Positions 3,001 to 19,783 of a stretch of 32,000 bases of DNA are shown piece after piece. Location: assembly GCA_943372995.1 (NCBI GenBank), contig CALSAQ010000003.1:297443-329442 (forward strand). The letters are read 5' to 3'. Position 1 is the first letter of the stretch. Every line of letters starts with the position of its first letter. The stretch comes from Sphingobacterium thalpophilum (GTDB lineage: Bacteria > Bacteroidota > Bacteroidia > Sphingobacteriales > Sphingobacteriaceae). The notes beneath the pieces are model-generated. The model searched no databases and was not told where the DNA came from. It saw nothing but the letters and a program-made list of their open reading frames with translations. A program made the position numbers and the translations under genes.

Positions 3001-6000
3001 TATGCTCCCATATCTGGTGTTGTTAAACTTCTAGCGTTTCCTAATATATCACTAGTCACATTCGCTAGTGGAGTACCCAAATCGTTAATCGCTGGAGAGG
3101 CAGGCATAAAGTTACCTATGCTTCTGTAAGGGAAAATTGGGTTTACACTTATACTGTTAGGATCGAATGTTGCGTTAACCGCTTGCCAATCTGCAAGAGT
3201 TGCTCGAGCTGATGAATTGTAACCTACATTTCCTGTAGGTACATAAAGATTATTGTAATTAGTTAATAACGGCGTAGCGGCTGTAACCATGTAAATTCCA
3301 TACTTAGTTCCAGATCCAGTTTTAGAAATTACAAAATTATTGTTTTTCAATTCGATACTATCCGCTGAACCAGTTTGGTAAAAACCATAGGCTGTACCAG
3401 CAGTTGCTTGATGATCTAAGATAATTGTATTATGATAATATTGAACATTTCCACTCGTAGAATTGTACATACCATAATGAGTACCACTGCTATTAATATT
3501 ATATACTAAATTATTTCTCACTATGGTTTTCTTCCCTACTTGTGCAGCTCCTGTCGATAAATGCAATGCATACAATGCACCTGTTCCAGAAGGATCCTGA
3601 TCGAACATGTTGTGAATTTTATTTTTCTCAATCAACAAGTTTTGTGAAGCACCAAGAATATATGTTGCGTAGGTAGTTGACGACATTTGAGTAGCATTCG
3701 GACGAGAAATATCGTTTCCAATTATCTGCGTTCCATCAGCATAATAATGGTATAGACCATAGTAGTAGAAATCTTGAATCTTATTATCCTTCAAAATGTT
3801 TCCAGCTGTAAGTGCATTACTACCGCTAGTTCCATAAACCGTAATTCCATAATAACCTCCAATAATGGTATTATTCTCAATTAAATTAAATCTCGAATTA
3901 GATGCAGTGCTAATTGAACCTGGAGCACCAATTACTAAACCAGCATAATTCGAGGAGCCTACATTAATTGATTTTAATACTGAATTTCTAATAATATTAT
4001 TGTCTGATGTATTAGTTATCACCACTGGGTATCCATAGGTAGATGTAGGATCCACTTCAATGGTTAAACTATCGATAATAATATAATCAGCATTGTTTAA
4101 TGTAAGAACTCCACGATCTGCTGAAGCTGTAATTACTGTTGTTAATAAAGCTTCATTACCTTTAAAGGTTACTGTATTTGTTGAGCTTGCTCCTGGTACA
4201 GTAGTGATGGTTACTTTCTCTTCGTACGGACCATCTGAAGCATTTACACTAAATACTACAGGGCCACATACTCCTCGAGATAATAAATCGCTAACTGCAG
4301 CATTGAAACTTGTGTAGTTTGCAGGTGTATTACCAATGGTATATGTTCCTGCTAAACCTGTTAAAATATTTAGTTTTTGAGTACTATCGTTTAATGTGTT
4401 TTCATCTGCAAGTCCATTTGGTAATGTAGACCATACTTTAATATTGTAAACTGTATTAGATACTCCTACGAATGACCCGATAGTAATAATACTATCTTTA
4501 TTCTTAGGCATTGCACCTGTGAAATTAAATGGAGTTTGAACAACATTATTCACCGACCAGTTAACTACTAAAGAACTCAATGTTGCTGTTCCTTTATTTT
4601 TAATTTTTACAGGAACTGGATTACTACCATTACAAACAATATTTGGACCTTCTATAGACATTACCTCTGCATCATTTACAGTAGGCGTAAACTCAAATGC
4701 ACCGATATCTGGTGTAACACTACGAGTAGTTCCATTGTAGTCTTTTGTAACTGCTGCAATTGGAGTTGCTGCATTGTTTAATACCGAACTATTCGGTACA
4801 AAATTATTTTTTTGTAATGACCTGTATTCTGGATCAACACTGAAACCGTTTTGATCATATGCATTTGAATTGGCTGCTTTCCAATCGGCAAGTGTTGCTT
4901 TTGCAGAACTATAATAACCCACGTTACCACTTGTTGCATTGATGTAATAGTTGTTATAATCTGCTGTAACACCTGGAGGGTTGGTTGCTAAATAAATACC
5001 ATATTTTACAGATGAACCACCACGTGTAATAGAGAAAGTATTATTTTTCACTTCAATATTTGAGGTTCCACCAGTTTGATAAAAACCATAAGCTGATCCT
5101 GTAGTAGAAGTTTTATTATCTAATGAAATAGTATTATTATAAAATCTTATATAGCTAGATGTTCCACCTGCATATAATCCATAATGACCACCTGATCCCG
5201 CAAAATTGTACACTACGTTATTCGTAACAATTGCTTCTCTACCCGCCGAGTGAGGGCAATTTGTGAAATATATACCATAAGGCGATTGAGTAGTACTTGG
5301 ATTTGCATTAAATGCATCGTGAATATTATTTCCATCAATTTTTGTACTTCCACTTACTCCATTACAATATACCCCAACAAAGTTTACAGAAGTAACACGA
5401 GTTGATCTCGACATTTCATTTTTACTTACCTCTGCACTATCTTGGTTGAATAAAGAAACACTATAATGGTATGGATCATACATTTTATTTCCAATAATTC
5501 TATTCGCTCTAGTTAATGCATTTGAACCCGCAACACCATAAATATTAATGTTGTAATATCCACCATAAATGGTGTTATTTTCGATTAAGTTACCGACAAA
5601 CAAACCACCAGTAGAATTTAATACTGAAGTAGAACCTGTAAGAGTAATACCAGTATAATTTTGTGTGATGATGTCGTTATTTAAATTGATAATGTTATTA
5701 GTGATTTTATTATAATCGGAATTAGTTCCTAAGAATATACCCCATCCGTAATTAGTTGCTCCATAAGCAGGAGTAATTACAAAGCTGTCGATTGTTACAT
5801 AGTCTGATCCATTTAAATAAAATCCGTAACGAACAACTGATGATATAGAGCTAAAATTCAATGCAGATCCATGTCCAAGAACACGTACAGTATTTACAGC
5901 ACTTGTTCCTACGATTTGATCGAATCTTACCTGCTCGTTATAAGGACCAGCATTTTTATTTACATCAATAATTACAGGGCCACACACACCACGATTATTT

Positions 6001-9132: not shown

Positions 9133-10125
9133 ATGAAAAAAGTAAGAGTAGCGATAAACGGATTCGGTAGAATTGGACGGGTATATCTAAGAAATGCATT
9201 ATTGAAACCAGAAATTGAAGTAGTTGCTATTAACGATATTACTGATAATAAAACACTAGCTCATCTATTTAAATACGATTCTATCCATAGAGGATTCAAT
9301 GGCTCTATTGAGATTGTTGAAGAGGGTATTGTAATTAATGGACAATTAATAAAAACATTTTCAGAAAAAGATCCAAGTGCATTGCCATGGGCTGAATTAA
9401 ATATAGATGTGGTGATTGAATCTACAGGTAAATTTTTATCTCGAGAAAAAGCGAATCTTCATTTAAGCGCAGGTGCAAAAAAGGTAATCCTCTCAGCCCC
9501 TCCTAACGACAAAGATATTCCAACTATAGTAATTGGAGTAAACGATTATATTTTAAAAGAGAATCATACCATCATTTCAAATGCATCCTGCACTACAAAT
9601 AATGTGGCTCCAATGGTAAAAGTACTCGATGATTTAGGGGAGATAGAAGATGGATACATAACTACTGTACATTCATATACTGGAGATCAGAATTTACACG
9701 ATGCACCTCACAGAGATTTGCGCAGAGCAAGAGCTGCTGCAGTTTCTATGATTCCAACAACTACTGGCGCAGCTAAAGCCATCACTAGCATTTTTCCTCA
9801 TTTAGAAGGTAAGCTTGGTGGGGCGGGAATTAGAGTCCCTGTTCCAAATGGTTCTCTAACCGATTTCACTTGCTTATTAAAAAAAGAAGTAACTGTTGAT
9901 GAAATAAATGAAGCCTTTAAATTAGCCTCTGAAAAAGAATTAAAAGGAATATTAGAATATACAGAAGACCCTATAGTATCTATCGACATACAAGAAAATC
10001 CTCATTCATGTATATTCGATGCTCAACTTACTTCAATTGTTGGCAAACTGGTGAAAGTTGTAGGATGGTACGATAATGAATGGGGTTACTCAAACCGATT
10101 GGTAGAATTAACCATTGTATTTTAA
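9133..10125 (+). CDS. gap: Type I glyceraldehyde-3-phosphate dehydrogenase
   Basis: 330-aa ORF. It has the N-terminal Rossmann motif INGFGRIGR and the catalytic motif SNASCTTN, and is full-length and colinear with the GapA family. Confidence 0.95.
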   Translation: MKKVRVAINGFGRIGRVYLRNALLKPEIEVVAINDITDNKTLAHLFKYDSIHRGFNGSIEIVEEGIVINGQLIKTFSEKDPSALPWAELNIDVVIESTGKFLSREKANLHLSAGAKKVILSAPPNDKDIPTIVIGVNDYILKENHTIISNASCTTNNVAPMVKVLDDLGEIEDGYITTVHSYTGDQNLHDAPHRDLRRARAAAVSMIPTTTGAAKAITSIFPHLEGKLGGAGIRVPVPNGSLTDFTCLLKKEVTVDEINEAFKLASEKELKGILEYTEDPIVSIDIQENPHSCIFDAQLTSIVGKLVKVVGWYDNEWGYSNRLVELTIVF

Positions 10126-10772
10126 TCTTTAATCAACCTCTCATTAAGTGCTTTTGCTACTGCTTCCGACATAGTAGTAACATGTAACTTCATGTATATA
10201 TTGCGAATATGTGTACGAACTGTTTCATAACTAATATTACACTCTGCGGAGATTGCTTTGTATGATTTACCTAATGTTAACAATTTTAAAATCTCTAACT
10301 CTCGTTTTGTTAAATTGTATTCGTCTTTCGCTTTAGGCGGCTGAATCTCTTCTGAAAATTTCTTTAAAATTCGTCGCGCAATACTTGGTGTCATGGGTGC
10401 CCCACCAGTCATTAAATCCTCTATAGAAGAAATGAGAATTTCTGGAGTGCTATTTTTTAATAAGTAGCCTTGTGCTCCAGCACAAATTGAATTGAATATT
10501 TTTTCATCATCTTCGAAAACAGTAAACATCAAAACTGGAATATCTAATCCTGCCTTACGTATCTCAGTAACAGCTTCTATCCCATCCTTAGGTGGAATCT
10601 CGATATCCATAATAACTAAGTTGGCTGCCACTCTATTTATTTTATTCACAATATCATCATAAGTAGCAAATGAATCGACTAGGTGAATATGCTCATATCC
10701 ACTAAACATTAATGCTAATGAGTTTCTAATTTTCTCATTGTCATCAAAAATAATTACTCTAATTTCTACCAT
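10122..10772 (-). CDS. NarL/FixJ (LuxR-type HTH) response regulator
   Basis: 216 aa. The receiver domain has the acidic pocket FDD, the phospho-acceptor context VIMDIEIP, and the conserved Lys in YLLK. The C-terminal LuxR/GerE HTH reads LTKRELEILKLLTLGKSYKAISAECNISYETVRTHIRNIYMKL. It lies 8 nt downstream of the kinase gene. Confidence 0.9.
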   Translation of the reverse strand: MVEIRVIIFDDNEKIRNSLALMFSGYEHIHLVDSFATYDDIVNKINRVAANLVIMDIEIPPKDGIEAVTEIRKAGLDIPVLMFTVFEDDEKIFNSICAGAQGYLLKNSTPEILISSIEDLMTGGAPMTPSIARRILKKFSEEIQPPKAKDEYNLTKRELEILKLLTLGKSYKAISAECNISYETVRTHIRNIYMKLHVTTMSEAVAKALNERLIKD

Positions 10773-10780
10773 TTTACTCT

Positions 10781-11470
10781 CTACAATTTAACCTTTAGTT
10801 TAACCTGAGTTCCATTGTTTGGGCTCGAACTCATTTGATATTGGGCTCCAATATTTTTTGCTCTAACTTTCATGTTTAGCAAACCGTTACCTTGCTTGTC
10901 TGTGTTCATATCAAATCCAACACCATTGTCTTTTATTTCAATCTCCAAGAATTTCGACAAAAGTGTTATTATAATTTGTACTCGACTTGCTTCAGAATAT
11001 TTTGCTATGTTGTTAATTGCTTCCTTACATATCAAGTACAAATCTCTTCTCATTAGCATATCTAAGTTACTGATATTATTAATATTCGAGTTTAGTTCAA
11101 AATTAATACTTTTTGCACTTAGAATCTTATTTGCATAGGCTTCAATTTTTTGAATAAGATTTTGAAGTGAATCATTTTTAGGGTTTACTACCCAAACAAT
11201 GTCGCCCATATTCTCAACTGTATCTCTCGCACTATCTGCCATTTGATTTAGAATTAATTCCGCATCTGCTAGTTTGTTGCTGTTCATTCTTTGCTTTACT
11301 GCTTGTGCATAAAATGATATACTACTCAAAGTAGCTCCTACATCATCGTGTAAATCTTGTGCAATGTTGTTTCTTATGGTGTTTACATACTTAGATTTCC
11401 TCAATACTCTCAGTCCATAGAAGTAAAAAAATACCGAGCAAATAAATAATAGAATAGAGACAAATATCAT
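10781..11470 (-). CDS. Small membrane-anchored sensor histidine kinase (HisKA_3 + HATPase_c) with no obvious sensor domain
   Basis: 229 aa. It has a single N-terminal TM (MIFVSILLFICSVFFYFYGL), the H-box DLHDDVGATLSSI, the N-box EAINNIAKYS, and the G-boxes DNGVGF and GNGLLNM. Confidence 0.85.
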   Translation of the reverse strand: MIFVSILLFICSVFFYFYGLRVLRKSKYVNTIRNNIAQDLHDDVGATLSSISFYAQAVKQRMNSNKLADAELILNQMADSARDTVENMGDIVWVVNPKNDSLQNLIQKIEAYANKILSAKSINFELNSNINNISNLDMLMRRDLYLICKEAINNIAKYSEASRVQIIITLLSKFLEIEIKDNGVGFDMNTDKQGNGLLNMKVRAKNIGAQYQMSSSPNNGTQVKLKVKL

Positions 11471-11534
11471 TTAATAATAATAAATTAATTAATGTCTAAT
11501 TTAACTATTAAATTTGAAATGCAAGACTTCTACA

Positions 11535-12944
11535 ATGAGATATCTAGAATTTAAACTTTATATTGAGAATAGGCTAAAAACAGAACTGCCCGAGTCTTTA
11601 TCGTATCATTCTTACGAACACACACTAGATGTTTTACATTGTGCTTTGTTTTATGCTAATGAATACAATCTATCTGAATATGAAAAAGAGCTTTTAGCTG
11701 TTGCAGTTCTTTTACACGATTCTGGTTTTATCTACACCACTCATCAGCACGAAGAAAAAAGTTGTGAGCTTGCACAAGAACTTCTACCTAAATTCGATTA
11801 TGGCATTTCAGAGATTAATCAGATTTGTGGAATGATACGTGCCACAAAAATTCCTCAAGTGGCAAACAATCTATTGGAAGAAATTATATGTGATGCCGAT
11901 CTTGACTATTTAGGCAGAGAAGACTTTTGGGAGATAGGGAATAAATTATATGCTGAATTAATTGAATTGAAAATAATTCGCGATAGAAAAGATTGGGATA
12001 AACTACAAATTGATTTTTTAGAAAAGCACAAATATTTTAGCGAATATGCACTGCTGAACAGAGAGCCGAAGAAACAAGAACATTTAGCAAAAGTAAAATC
12101 GAGATACGAGTCTCATCCAGAGCAAACTGCTCAGAACATTGTAGTACCTATTGATTTCACTCCAATCACAGAAAATGCTCTTCAATATGCTTGTACTATA
12201 GCCGCAAAAAACAGCGATGCCATACAACTTATTCATATTGTAAAAAAAGGCGAATTAAACATTAATTCTATAGACATAAAACTTAAAAATCTAGCCAGTG
12301 AGTATTCTAAAAAGTACTCCATCTCAATACATGCAAACATTAAAGAGGGAAGTATATTTAGTGACATTGCTGAATTTGCAGAGGAAATAAAGGCAGTACT
12401 AATAATTATGGGAACTCATGGTGTAAAAGGAATGCAATATGTAATTGGGGCCTTTGCTATAAAAGTGATTTCAAGCAGTACCGTTCCAGTATTAATTACC
12501 CAAGCTCAATCGAAATTAAAAGATTCGTTTAGTAGAATTGTTATTCCGATTGACCATACCGGCGAGAATAAACAAAAGGCCTTACAGACTATCCAATTTG
12601 CAAAAATATTTAATTCTGAAGTATATCTCTTTAAGCAAAACAGTGGCGATGAAGACAAGAAAAACAGGACACAGTTAAACCTAAATTTTTTTAAAAAGCT
12701 GTTACTTTCTCAAGATGTGAACTGTTATGTTGAAGAAATGAGTATTTCCGCGAAAGATTTTCATAAAGAATTTATCAAATTCGCCGAGAAAATATCCGCA
12801 GATCTCATCATTATATTAACTAGTCATGATAAAGGTATTATCGATTACGTGTTAGGCCCAACAGAGCAACAAGTGATTAACAATACTGCAAATATCCCAG
12901 TGATGTGTGTAAACCCATTACAACTTATTTATACTAGGAAATAG
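11535..12944 (+). CDS. HD-domain metal-dependent phosphohydrolase fused to two tandem universal stress protein (UspA) domains
   Basis: The track ORF starts at a TTG at 11514; the first ATG (MRYLEF) at 11535 is the more likely start. HD motifs: [25 protein letters not shown]. Usp domain 1 starts at about 12138 (IVVPIDFTP...IIMGTHG...[11 protein letters not shown]). Usp domain 2 starts at about 12534 (IVIPIDHTG...IIILTSH...[13 protein letters not shown]). Confidence 0.8.
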
Positions 12945-14121
12945 CAGCAACACCAGGCAGTACTTTACCTTCCATATACTCTAATAAGGCACCACCACCG
13001 GTTGAAACATAAGAAACATCGTCGGTTAAATTAAATTTTGCCACCGCTGCAGCAGAATCTCCACCTCCTATTAAAGAAAAGGCACCGTTTTTTGTTGCAT
13101 CTACTACCGCAAGTGCTATTTGCTTTGTTCCATTTTCAAAATTACTCATCTCAAAAACACCCATAGGTCCATTCCATAAAATTGTTTTTGAATTAGCAAT
13201 TATTTCTTTGAAGGTTTTTATCGATTTTTCTCCAATATCTAAGCCCATCCAACCATCAGGTATAGAATCGTTGTTAGCACTTGATTTTTGGGCATCATTA
13301 TTAAATGCATCAGCTATAATTGAATCTACAGGTAATGCTAAGTTCACACCTTTAGATTTTGCTTTTTCTATTAAGCTAAGTGCTAAATCTAATTTGTCTG
13401 CTTCGACTAAAGAAGATCCGATGTTACCACCTAGAGCTTTTGCAAATGTATAGGCCATTCCCCCTCCAATAATAATAGAGTTTACATTATCTAGGAGTTT
13501 CTCTATTAATAATATTTTATCCGACACCTTTGCTCCACCCATAATTGCAGTAAACGGACGATCGGCATTATTCATTACCTTCTCTGCATTCTTTAATTCG
13601 TTTGCCATCACATAACCAAAGACCTTTGCATTAGGGAAGAATTTAGCTACAATGGTTGTAGAAGCATGTGCTCTGTGTGCTGTACCGAATGCATCGTTCA
13701 CATATACATCTCCATGTTTCGATAATTTCTCAGCAAAAATTTCATCTCCCTTTTCTTCTTCTTTATAAAATCTTAAATTTTCTAATAATAAAATTTCACC
13801 AGGTTTTAAGTTCGATGATTTCATAAATGCATCATCCGATATACAATCATCAGCAAAAATTACATTCGCCTTGGTTAAATCAGAAAGATGTTTTACTATA
13901 TGTTTTAGTGAATATTTTTCTACAGGACCTTCTTTTGGTCGACCTAAATGAGACATTAATACTACAGATCCACCATCAGATAAAATCTTTTTTATTGTTG
14001 GAAGTGCTGCCCTCATACGAGTATCATCAGTAATTTCAAAAGCAGCATTCAATGGGACATTAAAATCGACGCGGATTAAGGCTCTTTCCCCTTGGAAGTC
14101 AACAGAATCAATAGTTTTCAT
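12934..14121 (-). CDS. pgk: Phosphoglycerate kinase
   Basis: 395 aa and full-length colinear with Pgk. Motifs seen: [25 protein letters not shown], and GGGDSAAAV near the C-terminus. Confidence 0.95.
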
Positions 14122-14161
14122 TTCAAAATTATATTATGCGGCAAAAATAACATTAAAATTA

Positions 14162-14198
14162 ATATGTTAATATGTTAATGAGTGAATATGTTAATGAG
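14162..14198. repeat. Three direct copies of ATATGTTAAT between the motB-like stop and the pgk start; two copies extend to ATATGTTAATGAG
   Basis: ATATGTTAAT occurs at 14162-14171, 14170-14179 and 14186-14195. ATATGTTAATGAG occurs at 14170-14182 and 14186-14198. All were read directly from the sequence. Confidence 0.7.
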
Positions 14199-14206
14199 CA
14201 CACGAA

Positions 14207-14893
14207 CTAGTAGTGTATTCTTAGTACCACCCTCCTATTTATCGATTGGTTATTTGGTATTGGCTCCCCTTTTGGATTTCTATTAGGCACTACCGGTTGT
14301 GTATCTGCATACCCTGAAGCTTTTAGTCGACCAGGCTCCATACCTCTCTCAATTAAATACCTAACTACATTTGAAGCTCTTGCAACAGATAGCTCCCAGT
14401 TTGATGGGAAGTTTATATTATTTATAGGATTATCGTCGGTATGCCCCTCAACATCAATATGGAAATTAGCTTTTTTCTTTTTACTTACCGAATTAATAAT
14501 TTCGAAGATTTTGTCTACAATCTCCTTCCCTTCAGGTAATAATTTTGCATCCCCACTATTGTAAAAAGAATTACTCAAGAAACGCATATTAATCCCATTG
14601 TCTTTATTTTCAATCTCGAGATTTTTGTTCTTCACCTCTTTCATTAACATCGAATCGAGCTGATGTTTTATTTCACTTAATGGAGTAACAACTTCCTTAT
14701 TTTTTACTTTCGATCGGTAACTTGCTTTTACCCTATCCCAAACGTTCTGATCGACATTAGCTGAGGCAAATAATAAAATAAAGAAACAAAGTAGCAATGT
14801 AATCAAATCGGCATACGTAATTAACCAAAGCTCGCCTGGCTCTTCACCATGCAGCGACTTCATTACTTTACGTTTGTTATTATCCGACGACAT
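14207..14893 (-). CDS. MotB/PomB-type stator subunit (single TM with conserved Asp, plus an OmpA-like peptidoglycan-binding domain)
   Basis: 228 aa. The TM segment is WLITYADLITLLLCFFILLFA, with an Asp in the position of the proton-relay Asp of MotB. The C-terminal OmpA-like signature is VEGHTDDNP...SNWELSVARASNVVRYL...GYADTQP...NRRVVLRI. Its start overlaps the motA-like stop (TAATG at 14893). Confidence 0.85.
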   Translation of the reverse strand: MSSDNNKRKVMKSLHGEEPGELWLITYADLITLLLCFFILLFASANVDQNVWDRVKASYRSKVKNKEVVTPLSEIKHQLDSMLMKEVKNKNLEIENKDNGINMRFLSNSFYNSGDAKLLPEGKEIVDKIFEIINSVSKKKKANFHIDVEGHTDDNPINNINFPSNWELSVARASNVVRYLIERGMEPGRLKASGYADTQPVVPNRNPKGEPIPNNQSINRRVVLRIHY

Positions 14894-15720
14894 TATTTGT
14901 TTGAATTTTGTTTGCTATCGTTTTCCGATTCTCTACTAACAAATGACATTAATTGGTCTCTGATTACCAATGTTGGCTTATTCTCTTTAAGTAATAATAA
15001 TCCTTCTAGAATTATTATTTCTCTTCTTTGAGTAAGTGCGGCGTTGTATTTTATCTTCTTTGCTAATGGGATAAAAAATAAATTTGCAGAAGCAACTCCA
15101 TATAATGTACCAATTAATCCGGTAGAAATACCCGGACCAATATTCGAAGGGTCGTTCAAGTTATTTAACATCACAATCATCCCAAGTACTGTTCCCAACA
15201 TCCCGAATGCTGGTGCAGAATTAGCCATTGAGTGAAATACATCCGACATTTGTAATGCTTGGTTGTATTCTTTATCGATACTCGTTTCGCCCATTGTTCT
15301 AATATCATTAGACGAATAGTTCGTATTGTATAAATCGAACAACAATTTCACAAAAGTATCTTTCTCATTTTGTGAAATATGATTCATAAACTCTTTCTTA
15401 TCTTTTTTTATTCTATCGGCCCAACTCACTACCATTTCAATATCTTCATTAATAGAGATGGTTTTGTGTTTAGTCTGACTGAATAATCTTCCAAAATTTC
15501 TTAAAGCCGAAAAAACTACATTAATAGGATACATCACAAACATAGCTGCGAGCACTCCACCAAATACAATGAAAAAACCTGCAATATGTATAAAAGGATT
15601 TTTTAAGAAATTTGGCAAGTAATGTTCCAATCGTATTGCTCCTGCTGTATCCATAATACCTAATACAACCAAAGCAGTACAAATAACAAATCCTAAAAAT
15701 GTACCTAAAGAAAATTTCAT
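14893..15720 (-). CDS. MotA/PomA-type proton-channel stator subunit (4 TM)
   Basis: 275 aa. It has two N-terminal TMs, a cytoplasmic loop of about 100 aa, and then SAPAFGMLGTVLGMIVML and GPGISTGLIGTLYGVASANLFFIPLAKK. That is the MotA/TolQ/ExbB family signature, with prolines in both TM3 and TM4 as in MotA. Confidence 0.85.
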   Translation of the reverse strand: MKFSLGTFLGFVICTALVVLGIMDTAGAIRLEHYLPNFLKNPFIHIAGFFIVFGGVLAAMFVMYPINVVFSALRNFGRLFSQTKHKTISINEDIEMVVSWADRIKKDKKEFMNHISQNEKDTFVKLLFDLYNTNYSSNDIRTMGETSIDKEYNQALQMSDVFHSMANSAPAFGMLGTVLGMIVMLNNLNDPSNIGPGISTGLIGTLYGVASANLFFIPLAKKIKYNAALTQRREIIILEGLLLLKENKPTLVIRDQLMSFVSRESENDSKQNSNK

Positions 15721-15722
15721 AA

Positions 15723-16292
15723 TTATTTTTTTGAAGTAATATCTTTTAATTCTTTAGCTGTTGGTACTCTAATCTCTGGGTCTAGTTTTGCTGCCTGCAT
15801 CCAAAGCTCTTTTGCTTTTTCTTCGTTACCCATAACATATAAAACACTTCCCTTTAATGATAAGGCCTCAGCTGTTTCAACAATTTTTAATGCTTCATCT
15901 ATATAGTCGAGTGCCGAATTATAATCATCAACATATAAAAACTCTTGCGCTCTTCTATAATATTTCATAGACAGGTTAATTGCATCCATTGCCTCTCTAC
16001 TTACATTAAGTGTTCCATCTATTACATCTTTCTTAGACTTAGGATCGGTAGTCATGGTAAGCACAAACTCTTCATTACCTTTTCCCACAGCGTACTCAAT
16101 GGAAGCTGCGTTGTTTTTGTATTTCACATTTACAGGGTCTTTAACCGAATAAGCTCTACGAGCATTTTCTGAGATACGTTGTTGCTCGGCTAAATCCTCT
16201 ATAGTATATCTTGTTTCACATGAACACAAGACCAATACTGTAGCGAGTAAGCTATATTTAAGGCCTGTATATAAAGCTGATTCCATAACCAA
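15723..16292 (-). CDS. Putative TPR-repeat lipoprotein
   Basis: 189 aa. The N-terminus has a hydrophobic stretch ending in a lipobox-like LVLCSC. The C-terminal half is TPR-like (YYRRAQEFLYVDDYNSALDYIDEALKI...GNEEKAKELWMQAAKLDP). The true start may be the Met two codons downstream (16286). It overlaps the upstream gene by up to 35 nt. Confidence 0.6.
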   Translation of the reverse strand: MVMESALYTGLKYSLLATVLVLCSCETRYTIEDLAEQQRISENARRAYSVKDPVNVKYKNNAASIEYAVGKGNEEFVLTMTTDPKSKKDVIDGTLNVSREAMDAINLSMKYYRRAQEFLYVDDYNSALDYIDEALKIVETAEALSLKGSVLYVMGNEEKAKELWMQAAKLDPEIRVPTAKELKDITSKK

Positions 16293-17325
16293 AATTTTGT
16301 GTTTGAAGAGAGCTCTTCGTATTTGTAAAAACTGAATTAATAAGGAAATATCTGAAGTCTGTTTCCAGACTTAAGTTCTGTGTAAAGTTTATCATTAATC
16401 CCTGACGAACATAGGGCACCACTTCCGACGATATTAAAGTTCCTATCGACTGAAATGCTTCCATCCAATATTTTCTAGGTTGATCGTTTTTCTTTAAAAA
16501 GCATAACGAGTAATAAAATGCAGCATTAGGCATTATCTTGCCAAATTTCTGAAAATTTGTAGTATCAATATCAGAGGCAGTGAGCTGTAGATATGAAAGT
16601 CCTGTTTTAAATCCATAATACCCATTATGAGTACGGTTAAATGGTTGGCGCCATGCTACGTTTGCATCGTATAGCGAGGTAAGAAATTTATCACCTAAAT
16701 CAACATTATCAACAATATAATATTGTGTTTTTAAGAAAGTAATTCCTAAGCCTACTTGTAACTCCGCTCTTCGTGGGTTATATAGATCAGGGTTCGAATT
16801 AATCACTGTACTATATATCAATTCTTTTGACCTAGATTTTACAACTTGTAAATTAATTTGATAACCGGTAATATGATCATAGGTTAACTGTGCATATACT
16901 AAAGCTTGCAAAGAATACTTATCTATCACTTCACTCATTCTATTCTCATCGAGTATTAAACGCTCTAATGAATTCTGACGAGTGATGGTGAGATTAGAAT
17001 CTGTTCCGTTCACAATAGTAAGCGCTTTTTGTTTAAACTCAGGAGCCGAAACTACAGTAAAACCTGCACCTGCAAAAGTCCCTTCTAATCGGCTTCTAAT
17101 TTGTGAAGCTTCACTTTCATTGATAATGTATTCTGGATAGTCGAACTGTGCAATAGAAACTCTTTTATATAACAAATCATTCACCTTTACTTTATCAGCA
17201 ATCTCATCCATTAAATCGACTAATTCCAATTGCTTCCTAATGATTGGGTTGTTTTTATCTATTTGCGAATATGATGATACATTCCAAAAACTAAAAAACA
17301 GCACAACTATTATAATCTTTTTCAT
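16258..17325 (-). CDS. Secreted envelope protein: a periplasmic alpha/beta N-terminal domain plus a beta-strand-rich C-terminal half (possible outer-membrane beta-barrel)
   Basis: 355 aa. The signal peptide is MKKIIIVVLFFSFWNVSSYSQ. The C-terminal half shows alternating hydrophobic/polar strands (AELQVGLGITFLKT, GYYGFKTGLSYLQL, LMINFTQNLSLETDFRYFLI, NFGYGISFIYRP). No family was recognised with confidence. Confidence 0.5.
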   Translation of the reverse strand: MKKIIIVVLFFSFWNVSSYSQIDKNNPIIRKQLELVDLMDEIADKVKVNDLLYKRVSIAQFDYPEYIINESEASQIRSRLEGTFAGAGFTVVSAPEFKQKALTIVNGTDSNLTITRQNSLERLILDENRMSEVIDKYSLQALVYAQLTYDHITGYQINLQVVKSRSKELIYSTVINSNPDLYNPRRAELQVGLGITFLKTQYYIVDNVDLGDKFLTSLYDANVAWRQPFNRTHNGYYGFKTGLSYLQLTASDIDTTNFQKFGKIMPNAAFYYSLCFLKKNDQPRKYWMEAFQSIGTLISSEVVPYVRQGLMINFTQNLSLETDFRYFLINSVFTNTKSSLQTQNFGYGISFIYRP

Positions 17326-19160
17326 TAAGCTACAAGTTTTAAAGTTTTACGTATAGAGTCGATAATTACTTTTCTTGCACGATCTCTATCTTCTGGGGTT
17401 ACGGCATTTCCACTTTCCAATTCGGCTTTAATTAGCGACTGCTCACGAGGTGGACGTTGAACAATAATTTTGTTTTGAACATGACTACTAATTCCTGTAA
17501 GTGCGTTAACAATGGTAGTAGTATCAATATCTCTTAATGCAGTTTCTAGTTGTAAGTCGGTTAAGTAAACTACATTTTTAAATCCAACAAATTGTTGCTT
17601 AATATTATTTGCCAATTCTAAATCTTGCGATGCAATGGTACTAATTAATTGATCTTGATCTTCATCCTGCATTTGATCTAAAATATCAAGTATAGATTGT
17701 AATCCATCAAAAGCAACATTCTTCATACCTTTCACATCAATTGCTTTCTTAGAGAAATAGGTTGCCACTTCTCTATATATAGAAGAAGAGATAAAATCAA
17801 TTTTACTCATCTTCATTAAAATTGAAGAACGACGATTAATTTCTATCATGCTCAATACATTTTTACTTCTCTTACTTTCCAATTGAGCTAATAATATTGC
17901 TGATAAATTATCATCCTCTTCTTTAATCATATGAATAATTTGAGAATCGGTAATTTGATTTAAGAATTCAAAGAGGTCTTCATTTCTATCAGGCTCTGCA
18001 TTTAACGAAAGCAATTCTTTACTAAAATCTCTTGCCTCTTGATATTTATCATTATGTGATTTTAATTGATGATTGGAGATTGCCTGATTTAATTCCGAAT
18101 ATGCATTGTCGGACATAAAAGGTCTTAAGAAATTAATCAACTTCGGATTAACAGCATTAAGAGCATTTGCAGCTCTAACCCTTCCCTCTTCTGGATTAGT
18201 TAACATCCAAGTTTCAAACATACTCGCCACTTCTTTAGGATTACTAATTACAGATGTAATGACGTGTTGGCGATTAAATTCGTAATTGATTATATCTTCT
18301 GTTTGATAATTACTTCCACCAGAATCGTTTCCGTTTGGATATATAATATTTAAATCATTTGGATTAGCATTATTCCCTAATAATTTAGCTTCCTCATCAC
18401 CTTTAGATTTCTTATCCGAATCTTTACTCTTACGATAAAGTAAGTACGTAACAAATACTATTATGATAAAACAAAGAATTAGTAAAATAACAAACACATA
18501 CAAAAGAGTATTATCTGTTTCAGCTTTCTCTACTTTATTCTCTGTAGGTTGTACAGCTGGTCTTTGTTCAGGCTCTTTCTGCTGGAAGTAGTTAGGTACT
18601 GGATTAGCAGGTGCTGCATTATTTTTTGCTGTTAAATCTTCTAGGCCTTTTGGAAATACTGAACGTTTAATTTTTACAACATCCCCTTTCGTTTCATCAA
18701 TGGGTATAATTGATCGGATTAATGAATTGATAAAGTCAATATCCGAATTCGAATAAGTAGTATCTACAATTACATTTACATATAGGTATTCTACTTCCTC
18801 AATGCTATATGTGTAATTCTTAGTTGTGTCGACCTCAGAATCTTGATATCCTTTTGGAAGCACTGGCATTCCTGGTAAACGCTGTAAACTTTTTTTTCTC
18901 TTATTTGATGCTGTTGGCTTAATGACCTCCACATTCCCTTGCAACATATTTATATCGACCAAAAAAGTACTCGGAGCAAAGAATTTGGTTAATTCTTGAC
19001 GAACTACGATCTCAAAATTGTTGGCTTGATTTAATGGCTCTGGGTTTTGTCCAGTTTTGGGTTGATACAGGAAAGATTGACTACTGGCTTGTTCAATACA
19101 AACAACACACAGCAAAAAGCTCAAAAAGGTATTAATAAGTATCTTCTTTCCCTCGCTCAT
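17325..19160 (-). CDS. Two-TM protein with a FliF-like periplasmic segment fused to a cytoplasmic full-length FliG homologue (N, M and C domains)
   Basis: 611 aa. An N-terminal hydrophobic segment spans aa 7-27, a periplasmic region spans about aa 28-218, and a TM spans aa 219-242 (LLYVFVILLILCFIIIVFVTYLLY). The cytoplasmic region, about aa 325-608, is colinear with FliG. Matching stretches: GRVRAANALNAVNPKL (FliG-N style), LFEFLNQITDSQIIHMIKEEDDNLSAILLAQLESKRSKNVLSMIE (FliG-M), and FVGFKNVVYLTDLQLETALRDIDTTTIVNALTGIS...RPPREQSLIKAELE...ARKVIIDSIRK (FliG-C, including the torque-helix region). The comparison is against FliG sequences recalled from memory, not a computed search. Confidence 0.7.
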   Translation of the reverse strand: MSEGKKILINTFLSFLLCVVCIEQASSQSFLYQPKTGQNPEPLNQANNFEIVVRQELTKFFAPSTFLVDINMLQGNVEVIKPTASNKRKKSLQRLPGMPVLPKGYQDSEVDTTKNYTYSIEEVEYLYVNVIVDTTYSNSDIDFINSLIRSIIPIDETKGDVVKIKRSVFPKGLEDLTAKNNAAPANPVPNYFQQKEPEQRPAVQPTENKVEKAETDNTLLYVFVILLILCFIIIVFVTYLLYRKSKDSDKKSKGDEEAKLLGNNANPNDLNIIYPNGNDSGGSNYQTEDIINYEFNRQHVITSVISNPKEVASMFETWMLTNPEEGRVRAANALNAVNPKLINFLRPFMSDNAYSELNQAISNHQLKSHNDKYQEARDFSKELLSLNAEPDRNEDLFEFLNQITDSQIIHMIKEEDDNLSAILLAQLESKRSKNVLSMIEINRRSSILMKMSKIDFISSSIYREVATYFSKKAIDVKGMKNVAFDGLQSILDILDQMQDEDQDQLISTIASQDLELANNIKQQFVGFKNVVYLTDLQLETALRDIDTTTIVNALTGISSHVQNKIIVQRPPREQSLIKAELESGNAVTPEDRDRARKVIIDSIRKTLKLVA

Positions 19161-19378
19161 AATTTATCAATGAAATAGTCGATTGGTCTAGTTAATTAGG
19201 GTACTACACATTATAGCCGCTTTTAAAAATATGTATATTTTATATAAAAACAAACATTTTTGAAGCTGCTACAAGCCAATAAATGCCATTAAAGCCCTTT
19301 TTAGACTACTGAAACATGAATAAACAATTAGAAAGAATTGAAAATCAGCAGGTCATAGGCATAATCAAAACCAAAATA

Positions 19379-19783
19379 TTATTCCTTGTCTTCCCAACTT
19401 GATTGGATATTATCTATTTCTCTTCTTTCTTTTTTAGTAGGGCGGCCTGTTCCACGGTCTCTTTTCAAAACAGGGGTTGTAAAAACTGAATGAAACTTAG
19501 GAGCATCATCTTTTGGTGATAAATCTTCAAAATATTTTTGAACTGAACTTGCATCTAGTCTTTTTTCGAGTAATTCGAGAACTTTAACAACTTTCTTTTG
19601 TTGATCTTTTTGAATATGATAAACATCGCCAACTTTAACCACATAAGATGCTTTTATACTTTGCTGGTCTAGTTTAATTTTTCCAGCCTTACATGCATCT
19701 GTAGCTAAACTTCTGGTTTTAAAGATTCGAATGGCCCATAAATATTTATCGATTCTGAGCTTTTCATTTTTTTCAGTTGTCAT
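19379..19783 (-). CDS. S4-domain RNA-binding protein (Hsp15/HslR-like)
   Basis: 134 aa. The S4 motif is RIDKYLWAIRIFKTRSLATDACKAGKIKLDQQSIKASYVVKVGDVYHI, followed by a basic C-terminal tail. Confidence 0.8.
   Translation of the reverse strand: MTTEKNEKLRIDKYLWAIRIFKTRSLATDACKAGKIKLDQQSIKASYVVKVGDVYHIQKDQQKKVVKVLELLEKRLDASSVQKYFEDLSPKDDAPKFHSVFTTPVLKRDRGTGRPTKKERREIDNIQSSWEDKE

Follow-up and report, generated by a model that had tools for sequence, protein, structure and literature searches.

A window of 32,000 nucleotides (32 kb; the whole stretch of DNA that was analysed) from contig CALSAQ010000003.1 of assembly GCA_943372995.1, deposited as Sphingobacterium thalpophilum, contains five consecutive minus-strand genes, here called P1 to P5, that encode a FliF-FliG fusion protein, two envelope proteins and a flagellar-type MotA/MotB stator pair (Table 1). 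A preliminary description of this DNA had proposed a single operon of five tightly joined genes behind a 218-bp intergenic region, and the five open reading frames (ORFs), the junction letters and the intergenic region were all present as described. The P1/P2 junction at 17325 (GCTTAATGAAA) and the P4/P5 junction at 14893 (AAATAATGTCG) are both one-base stop/start overlaps of the form TAATG. P3 and P4 are joined by TAA-TT-ATG, a 2-nt gap at 15721–15722, and P2 and P3 overlap by 35 nt (16258–16292), or by 29 nt if P3 begins at its ATG. The five genes therefore look co-transcribed and translationally coupled. A scan of the stretch gave promoter-like matches at chance level (27 against 25.8 expected) and uninformative terminator-like matches (3 against 2.4), so the boundaries of the operon were drawn from gene spacing only. 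The best sigma-70-like match of the scanned stretch (10/12, at 19237–19210) lies inside the 218-nt spacer and carries no evidence of function.

Table 1. Features of the five-gene cassette, as positions in the window (aa, amino acids; TM, transmembrane; RBM, ring-building motif; pLDDT, predicted local distance difference test; TPR, tetratricopeptide repeat)
Feature	Position	Strand	Description
Upstream intergenic region	19161–19378	minus	218 nt, between S4-domain gene (19379–19783) and P1; presumed promoter region
P1	17325–19160	minus	611 aa ORF
RBM3-type periplasmic ring-building motif	18651–19043	minus	P1 ~40–170; predicted α-β, ~50-aa insert, β-α-β
Second TM helix (FliF TM2 equivalent)	18435–18509	minus	P1 ~218–242; helix 216–247, pLDDT ~80
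FliF C-tail and FliG N-domain equivalent	17991–18308	minus	P1 ~285–390; six predicted helices, pLDDT 70–85
FliG middle domain	17733–17972	minus	P1 ~397–476; Pfam FliG_M
FliG C-terminal (torque) domain	17346–17639	minus	P1 ~508–605; Pfam FliG_C, Foldseek
P2	16258–17325	minus	355 aa ORF; signal peptide, predicted periplasmic domain and outer-membrane barrel
P3	15723–16292	minus	189 aa from TTG, 187 aa from ATG at 16286; TPR lipoprotein
P4	14893–15720	minus	275 aa; flagellar-type MotA/PomA stator A subunit
P5	14207–14893	minus	228 aa; MotB-type stator B subunit

P1 is a natural end-to-end fusion of FliF, without RBM1 and RBM2, to FliG, and is the presumed rotor subunit. Its layout comprises a first TM or signal segment (TM1), one RBM3-type domain, TM2, a FliF C-tail and the FliG N, M and C domains; this assignment, with one ring-building motif, follows from FliG and FliF profile matches, matches of the periplasmic domain and Foldseek structural comparison. 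Analysis with Pfam revealed significant matches to FliG_C (E = 5.7e-15, residues 508–605, 55.9 bits; gathering cut-off 23.3) and FliG_M (E = 1.2e-8, residues 406–476, 35.5 bits; cut-off 25), both stronger than the match to MgtE_N, and the FliG homology that had been proposed from the letters alone withstood this profile test. MgtE_N fell short of its cut-off with 19 bits, a long way behind the FliG models, and a reading of P1 as an MgtE_N-only protein or generic helical repeat was rejected. An unexpected match to YscJ_FliF_C (E = 1.1e-5, residues 110–169, 26.3 bits; cut-off 23.8) fell in the periplasmic part, and FliG_N (E = 1.6e-4, 22.7 bits) was out of register and slightly under its cut-off of 25. 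The NCBIfam fliG model TIGR00207 gave 84.6 bits and did not reach its equivalog cut-off of 226.7. A phmmer search of PDB sequences returned FliG as the only significant match (T. maritima FliG-MC, E = 1.7e-14) and aligned residues 42–314 of Salmonella FliG with residues 331–605 of P1.

A profile built from 122 diverse members of the P1 family matched T. maritima FliG-MC with E = 4e-49. Positions 313–603 of this profile aligned with residues 11–326 of full-length A. aeolicus FliG (E = 3.5e-44), in agreement with the earlier view of P1 as a two-TM protein whose approximately 290 cytoplasmic amino acids are colinear with the N, M and C domains of FliG. Immediately upstream of the FliG match, positions 136–311 aligned with residues 404–560 of Salmonella FliF, which cover the end of RBM3, TM2 and the C-terminus (E = 2.1e-9). 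Because the family profile aligned A. aeolicus FliG from residue 11, and Salmonella FliG aligned from residue 42, the FliG N-terminal domain was counted as present in P1 despite the sub-threshold FliG_N match, a placement made on sequence alignment. The term 'membrane-tethered FliG', as first applied to P1, understates the protein, which is a FliF(RBM3-TM2-C-tail)-FliG fusion. The last ~40 residues of the FliF C-terminus are those that bind FliG (PMC4768692).

The periplasmic part of P1 is only ~190 aa long and holds one RBM. YscJ_FliF_C was matched in the periplasmic segments of 19 of 26 diverse family members, and when the periplasmic segment alone was made into a profile, the top PDB entry was FliF (E = 0.0096), with the alignment running through the 'RGDllnV' motif of FliF that closes RBM3. 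PF01514, which represents RBM1-RBM2 (the SctJ-homology region), had no match in P1 at E<=1. The AlphaFold2 (AF2) model of P1 was poor overall (pLDDT 57); within the RBM3-type domain it places a helix at 45–58, a strand at 66–73, the insert, a strand at 125–133, a helix at 138–151 and a strand at 161–167. As modelled, this arrangement of α-β, 50-residue insert and β-α-β is the split topology of FliF RBM3, in which the collar insert has the same position. The insert carries a near-invariant LPGxPxxP and the domain ends in a near-invariant RGD…FP. A hydrophobic segment at ~200–260 was found in nearly all P1 family members. The top 31 Foldseek matches of the model, all with probability 1.00, were FliG or FliF RBM3 rings. 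Among the FliF RBM3/collar rings, 6sd1 for example aligned with a target TM-score (TMt) of 0.46, and the C-domain aligned with T. maritima FliG-C (TMt 0.83, rmsd 2.0 Å) and with FliG-C bound to a MotAB stator (8ucs_H; TMt 0.77, rmsd 1.7 Å).

Alignment of P1 with T. maritima FliG showed that the column of the FliM-binding EHPQ motif reads EDDN in the P1 of the window. Across the family, conservation of the motif is limited to its Glu (97/122), with variation at the other three positions. The torque-helix arginine, R281 of E. coli FliG, corresponds to P1 R572 and is R or K in 116/122 members; the equivalent of FliG D289 (P1 E580) is E or D in 61/122 and is invariant in the clade of the window. 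The most conserved positions of the family are periplasmic, namely L-P-G-L-P and then R-G-D followed by F-P (P96 and G97, each 119/122; G159, 115/122; D160, 121/122). This conservation points to a putative essential interface, with ring or partner contacts as candidates.

As judged from their profile matches and aligned residues, P4 and P5 are a MotA/MotB stator pair of the flagellar type, in which the plug, the channel Asp and the OmpA domain are all present. P4 matched Pfam MotA_ExbB (E = 2.5e-22) and its PDB matches were all flagellar MotA/PomA stators (2.7e-27 to 3e-11), in line with the MotA/PomA-type channel first proposed. The flagellar MotA/MotP/PomA models of NCBIfam gave E = 4e-39 to 2e-18, all under the equivalog cut-offs, compared with 1.4e-5 for TolQ and 3e-3 for ExbB. 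A motor of the Tol/Exb/Gld type was rejected on the gap between these TolQ or ExbB scores and those of flagellar MotA (E = 4e-39), there being no TolA/TonB-like gene in the cassette either. P5 matched MotB_plug (E = 1e-15, residues 10–58) and OmpA (E = 2.5e-17, residues 110–209) in Pfam, and MotD/MotB/MotS in NCBIfam (E = 1.7e-44 and weaker, all under cut-offs). Alignments were made against E. coli MotA, Vibrio PomA and E. coli MotB, with the reference sequences checked by residue numbering. The channel Asp of P5, D29 in 'WLITYADLITLL', aligned with D32 of E. coli MotB and is conserved in all aligned lineages, and the peptidoglycan-binding motif SNWELS…R…NRR is kept in every one of them; P5 is thus the MotB-type protein, with TM Asp and OmpA-like domain, that had been described. 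The cytoplasmic loop of P4 is colinear with that of PomA (TGI4 type), with no gaps and without the E. coli insert. The equivalents of MotA P173 and P222 are kept in P4 in every lineage. The MotA R90/R88 column holds a basic residue in 5/7 lineages, and the remaining two have one no more than two residues away. Flagellar-type (FIT) stators have been defined by a B subunit with plug and linker, a channel Asp and an OmpA-like peptidoglycan-binding domain, and by an A subunit with an expanded cytoplasmic torque-generating interface of >=4 helices and an unbroken TM3 (PMC12505986). By these definitions P4/P5 would be classed, at the level of sequence, as a FIT stator (PMC12505986).

Between the rotor and stator genes lie two genes for envelope proteins. 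P2 had been described as a signal-peptide protein with a beta-rich C-terminal half, and AF2 and Foldseek resolved that half as an 8-stranded barrel. P2 matched no Pfam or NCBIfam family. Its AF2 model (mean pLDDT 75; barrel ~85–92) divides it into a signal peptide, a periplasmic α/β region at ~27–176 and a barrel at ~188–355. Foldseek matched the barrel to the OmpA TM domain (1bxw; E = 2.9e-6, TMt 0.61) and also to Ail, OprG and NspA, and matched the N-domain to TolB, LpoB (4q6z) and GNA1162 (4hrv). P2 is thus predicted to consist of a periplasmic α/β domain similar to TolB-N and LpoB, followed by an outer-membrane barrel of the OmpA type with 8 strands. A P2 homologue occupies the same cassette position in 9/10 of the lineages whose gene context is given below. 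P3 agrees with its first description as a TPR lipoprotein, with matches to TPR_2 (E = 2.3e-9) and TPR_1 (E = 4.4e-9) in two C-terminal TPR repeats and a lipobox-type Cys after a hydrophobic N-terminus in 6/7 aligned lineages. Its TPR block is conserved as …TAEAxALKGS…W…A…L[DN]P. In one lineage (L017, 9712–12265) a P3-like TPR occurs elsewhere. The C-terminal part (~646–743) of its 754-aa P1-like protein resembles the P3 TPR block, and a 966-aa ORF upstream of the P1-like gene likewise ends in a P3-like TPR. Since a cytoplasmic location is expected for the C-terminus of FliG but not for a lipoprotein such as P3, the former may reflect generic TPR similarity or a different topology in that lineage.

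An exhaustive profile search for the P1 family, with representatives clustered at 50% identity, returned 4182 proteins at E<=1e-3, 1140 at E<=1e-10 and 141 representatives at E<=1e-30. The weaker matches probably include ordinary FliG proteins. A word-index homologue search had given 27–28 clusters, an undercount superseded by the profile search. Nearly all of the top 150 matches are ~570–730 aa long with a signal/TM segment and a TM helix near 200–260, and usually contain LPGxP. The named carriers are uncultured freshwater Sphingobacteriales-like metagenome-assembled genomes (MAGs), one Balneolaceae MAG, GCA_040877545.1, and Fibrobacterales MAGs such as GCA_047518385.1. Judging by these matches, the cassette belongs to a widespread family and is not an oddity of one genome. 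The NCBI labels of the MAGs with 64–82%-identical P1 (L004, L005, L008 and L009) include 'Rhizobium sp. Q54' and 'Sphingobacterium thalpophilum', and sister MAGs are labelled 'Sphingobacteriales bacterium'; the species-level labels of these MAGs are evidently unreliable.

Gene context was analysed in ten lineages, with P1 21–100% identical to that of the window and GC contents of 32–49%. The order P1-P2-P3-MotA-MotB was found in 8/10 of them, down to 21–32% P1 identity; seven of the eight cassettes are complete and in the eighth (L020) MotB is cut off by the contig end. The five genes travel as one unit across distant lineages. The flanks of the cassette differ among lineages and consist of housekeeping genes throughout, and no flagellar Pfam family was found within ±10 kb of the cassette in the ten lineages. 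The preliminary description had noted no fliM, fliN, flhA, rod or hook genes in the 32 kb; indeed, neither these nor any other flagellar family was found among the called genes of the window. Comparison of the window with four related lineages gave, for all five genes, proportions of synonymous differences (pS) of 0.63–0.81, which are saturated, proportions of nonsynonymous differences (pN) of 0.06–0.29 and dN/dS of 0.02–0.18. All five genes are under strong purifying selection.

Taken with the FliG/FliF homology of P1, the flagellar-type stator and the flanks without flagellar genes, these results favour the minimal rotor-plus-stator reading put forward in the preliminary description. We consider it somewhat better than an even bet that the cassette encodes a self-contained rotor-stator machine, driven by ion motive force, that spans the envelope and that, though assembled from components of the flagellar motor, is not a flagellum. 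P1 would oligomerise via RBM3, and the resulting inner-membrane ring would serve as S-ring and FliG ring at once. Stator units of the MotA5B2 type, held to peptidoglycan by P5 and powered by proton or sodium flow, would rotate this ring by pushing on the conserved torque helix in the C-domain of FliG. Engineered Salmonella FliF-FliG fusions assemble and rotate (cited in PMC4768692), which makes a fused rotor mechanically plausible. As P1 has no RBM1 or RBM2 to house the export gate, such a machine would be without type III export, rod, hook or filament; with no gate no axial structure would be expected. Loss of the EHPQ motif would likewise leave it without a FliM/FliN switch complex. Rotation of the P1 ring would probably be unidirectional. 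The periplasmic LPGxPxxP insert and the RGD…FP end may couple the ring to P2 and/or P3, and this coupling could transmit force to the outer membrane or organise it. Candidates for the output are movement of outer-membrane or surface proteins and Tol-Pal-like envelope maintenance.

Several observations weigh against this interpretation. The equivalent of FliG D288 is mostly S or A in the P1 family, with neither D288 nor K264 conserved. The column of E. coli MotA E98 is N in the P4 of the window, N, Q or T in its clade, and D or E in three deeper lineages. With the equivalents of E98 and of D288/K264 lost, only half of the classical rotor-stator charge pairing is retained in the cassette of the window. 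The five-gene unit is not obligatory, since two lineages have partial sets. L017 encodes P1-MotA-MotB without P2 or P3, and L018 encodes P1-P2-P3 (3930–7650), with no MotA or MotB found by tblastn on its 15-kb contig. Two short ORFs (132 and 78 aa) come next in L018 in place of stator genes; its stator may be encoded elsewhere or lost. Ring, stoichiometry and rotation are read from homology, with a P1 model of pLDDT 57. The check for flagellar genes covered the 32-kb window and ±10 kb around the cassette in ten lineages, and a flagellar set could be present in other parts of the genome. Flagellated relatives exist for Balneolaceae and for some Fibrobacterota, and a methyl-accepting chemotaxis protein (MCP) gene (L021, 1–353) lies 10 kb upstream of a Fibrobacterales cassette.

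The strongest of the rival explanations, and one we regard as unlikely, is that there is no continuous rotation. The FliF-FliG ring would be a fixed platform in the inner membrane and MotAB would perform Tol-Pal- or Ton-like work, driven by proton motive force, on P2 and P3, pulling on or remodelling them for envelope integrity, division or uptake. The cassette does have a Tol-Pal-like make-up, with a 5:2-type motor pair, a TolB-N-like domain, an OmpA-type peptidoglycan binder and a CpoB-like TPR protein. The loss of the classical MotA E98 charge in the clade of the window is consistent with such a role, and the hosts examined are small-genome planktonic MAGs (contigs 2.3–3.2 Mb) in which a motility organelle is not obviously expected. 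However, the stator is clearly flagellar-type, unlike TolQR or ExbBD, and an extended protein of the TolA or TonB kind is missing from the cassette. One of the best conserved parts, moreover, is the FliG C-domain, which has no known function other than receiving torque, and its R572 is near-invariant.

An improbable explanation is that a genuine, divergent flagellum exists, with its export gate, rod, hook and filament genes elsewhere, and that the cassette supplies its MS-ring, C-ring and stator. All three core proteins are flagellar homologues, the stator is flagellar and not of the Tol/Exb type, and the JGI pipeline calls P1 homologues 'flagellar motor switch protein FliG'. The confinement of the flagellar gene survey to the window and the ±10 kb flanks leaves room for this explanation, and the MCP gene 10 kb from the Fibrobacterales cassette would fit it. 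Against it, P1 has neither RBM1 nor RBM2, where FliF accommodates the export gate, and the FliM-binding EHPQ is not conserved. All of the NCBIfam flagellar equivalog cut-offs were missed widely, as with fliG (84.6 against 226.7 bits). No flagellar family was found within ±10 kb in ten independent lineages, though flagellar genes normally cluster, and the cassette includes an outer-membrane barrel and a TPR lipoprotein that have no flagellar Pfam match. Additionally, Bacteroidota have been reported without filament, C-ring and MS/P/L-ring proteins (PMC12199754).

Two further explanations can be given very little weight. A decaying, functionless remnant of an ancestral flagellar cluster would accord with the flagellar remnants known in non-motile lineages (PMC12199754) and with the apparent loss of MotAB from L018, but it is effectively refuted by the dN/dS of 0.02–0.18 at saturated synonymous sites and by the conservation of catalytic and structural residues, and it is opposed too by five intact, translationally coupled ORFs and by synteny at 21–32% identity across Bacteroidota-like, Balneolaceae and Fibrobacterales MAGs. 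A Zorya-like anti-phage system or another MotAB-family system (GldLM/T9SS, AglRQS, ExbBD) is similarly hard to credit: in PADLOC, P5 does match the models for ZorB (E = 6.4e-22 at best) and T9SS-tailed proteins lie near some cassettes, but the ZorB matches reflect generic MotB homology, P4 has no ZorA match, P1–P3 have no PADLOC match, ZorC/D-like genes are not adjacent, P4 and P5 fit flagellar models far better than TolQ or ExbB, and none of GldLM/T9SS, AglRQS, ExbBD and Zorya is known to contain FliG or FliF. Zorya was rejected on the PADLOC result, in which P5 alone was matched.

The reading of the cassette as a self-contained rotor-stator machine is therefore preferred. Its fullest form, an autonomous, flagellum-independent rotary engine with a fused mini MS-ring/FliG rotor, MotAB and outer-membrane partners in flagella-less bacteria of the Fibrobacterota-Chlorobiota-Bacteroidota (FCB) group, is in our estimate evenly balanced between true and false.

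The neighbourhood of the cassette was also recorded. In the window, the 85-nt spacer between the motB stop and the pgk start (14122–14206, minus) contains a tandem direct repeat of CTCATTAACATATT (two copies) followed by AACATATTAA, which may be an operator or promoter element for pgk; the terminator scan found no terminator-like hairpin in this spacer. The pgk gene (12934–14121, minus) is convergent with a gene for a 476-aa fusion of an HD domain and a universal stress protein (11514–12944, plus), and the 3′-ends of the two overlap by 11 nt. The length of 476 aa assumes a TTG start; the gene call on the source contig gives 469 aa. Genes for a HisKA_3 histidine kinase and a LuxR/GerE-type response regulator (10122–11470, minus) stand 2.7 kb downstream of motB in the window. 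In L017 a PAS-HisKA_3 kinase and a GerE-type regulator follow directly after motB (13859–16080). A kinase/regulator pair downstream of motB could be a recurrent regulatory neighbour or a coincidence. In L016, motB is followed by a gene for a DUF5723 protein (12251–13768) and in L022 by one for a BBP2_2 outer-membrane barrel (15406–16539). L022 also has a gene for a PilZ-domain protein 4 kb upstream of the cassette (5409–5813).

The first 8846 bp of the window (minus strand, running past the window start) encode the N-terminal 2948 aa of a giant surface protein that is 3930 aa long on the source contig and has Beta_helix (E = 2.4e-23), Ig_7 and PKD domains. Large T9SS-tailed proteins are encoded near the cassette in L011 (20829 onward) and L017 (217–3423). 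The presence of giant or T9SS-tailed proteins near cassettes may be chance, such cargo being abundant in these phyla, and a functional link between the cassette and the giant beta-helix protein is speculation.

To our knowledge no role has been described for FliG other than that of the torque-receiving rotor element of the flagellum, and FIT stators are defined as flagella-specific (PMC12505986). A conserved, selected operon that combines FliG with a FIT stator, lacks gate, rod, filament and switch and has its own outer-membrane proteins would, if the proposed reading is true, be a new ion-driven envelope machine. The preliminary description had left room for the cassette being an already named and characterised system; no paper naming or describing it was found in the literature searched. 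Approximately 11% of non-motile species keep rotor proteins, for a reason described as an open question (ISME J 2025, PMC12199754), and the cassette would supply a concrete example. It would have arisen either by exaptation of a motor core whose flagellum had been lost or as a sister lineage in which rotor and stator work without the type III export apparatus, and models that derive the flagellum from a rotor-stator module joined to a secretion module could be tested on it. With three core proteins it would be a minimal system in which to study the turning of a FliG ring by a MotAB unit, and it may account for some of the as yet unassigned envelope or surface-motility behaviour of abundant freshwater Bacteroidota.

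On the features tested, the system resembles the flagellar motor core yet falls outside the FliG equivalog and the full FliF and, within the loci surveyed, the flagellum. It shares with that core the RBM3, TM2 and C-tail of FliF, the N, M and C domains of FliG, a MotA/PomA-type A subunit and a MotB with plug, Asp and OmpA domain; the torque-helix Arg is kept, and the acidic residue is kept in part. It differs from the core in that FliF and FliG are one polypeptide without RBM1 or RBM2, EHPQ is lost, and the FliM/N, export, rod, hook and filament genes are not nearby in the cassette loci. It also fixes two non-flagellar partners, the outer-membrane barrel protein and the TPR lipoprotein. Periplasmic TPR or outer-membrane-associated proteins stand beside MotB-type stators in complete flagella too, namely the TPR proteins PflA and PflB of Campylobacter and the H/T-ring proteins of Vibrio. 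Pfam and NCBIfam scans detected no similarity of P2 or P3 to such scaffolded high-torque motor proteins.

The short FliF-FliG fusion of Chlamydiaceae is ~330 aa long and has SctJ-type RBMs, no RBM3/SpoIIIAG-like domain and a FliG-M-like region only (PMC4768692). Chlamydia lacks a MotAB partner for this protein, and a role alongside the injectisome is suspected (PMC4768692). Like P1 it is a natural fusion of a truncated FliF with a FliG-like cytoplasmic domain in bacteria regarded as non-flagellated, whereas P1 keeps RBM3, a complete FliG and an adjacent stator, in a comparison made by description only (PMC4768692). Engineered FliF-FliG fusions of Salmonella and Vibrio (e.g. PDB 8z4d; PMC11481574) share with P1 the end-to-end arrangement. 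They assemble rings, and in Salmonella they support rotation, but they were made in the laboratory from full-length FliF and sit within a complete flagellum. The Tol-Pal system (TolQRA-TolB-Pal-CpoB) likewise encodes together a 5:2 motor pair, a TolB-N-like domain, an OmpA-type peptidoglycan binder and a TPR protein; the cassette differs from it in having a flagellar-type motor and neither TolA nor the TolB beta-propeller, and in possessing a FliF-FliG ring protein.

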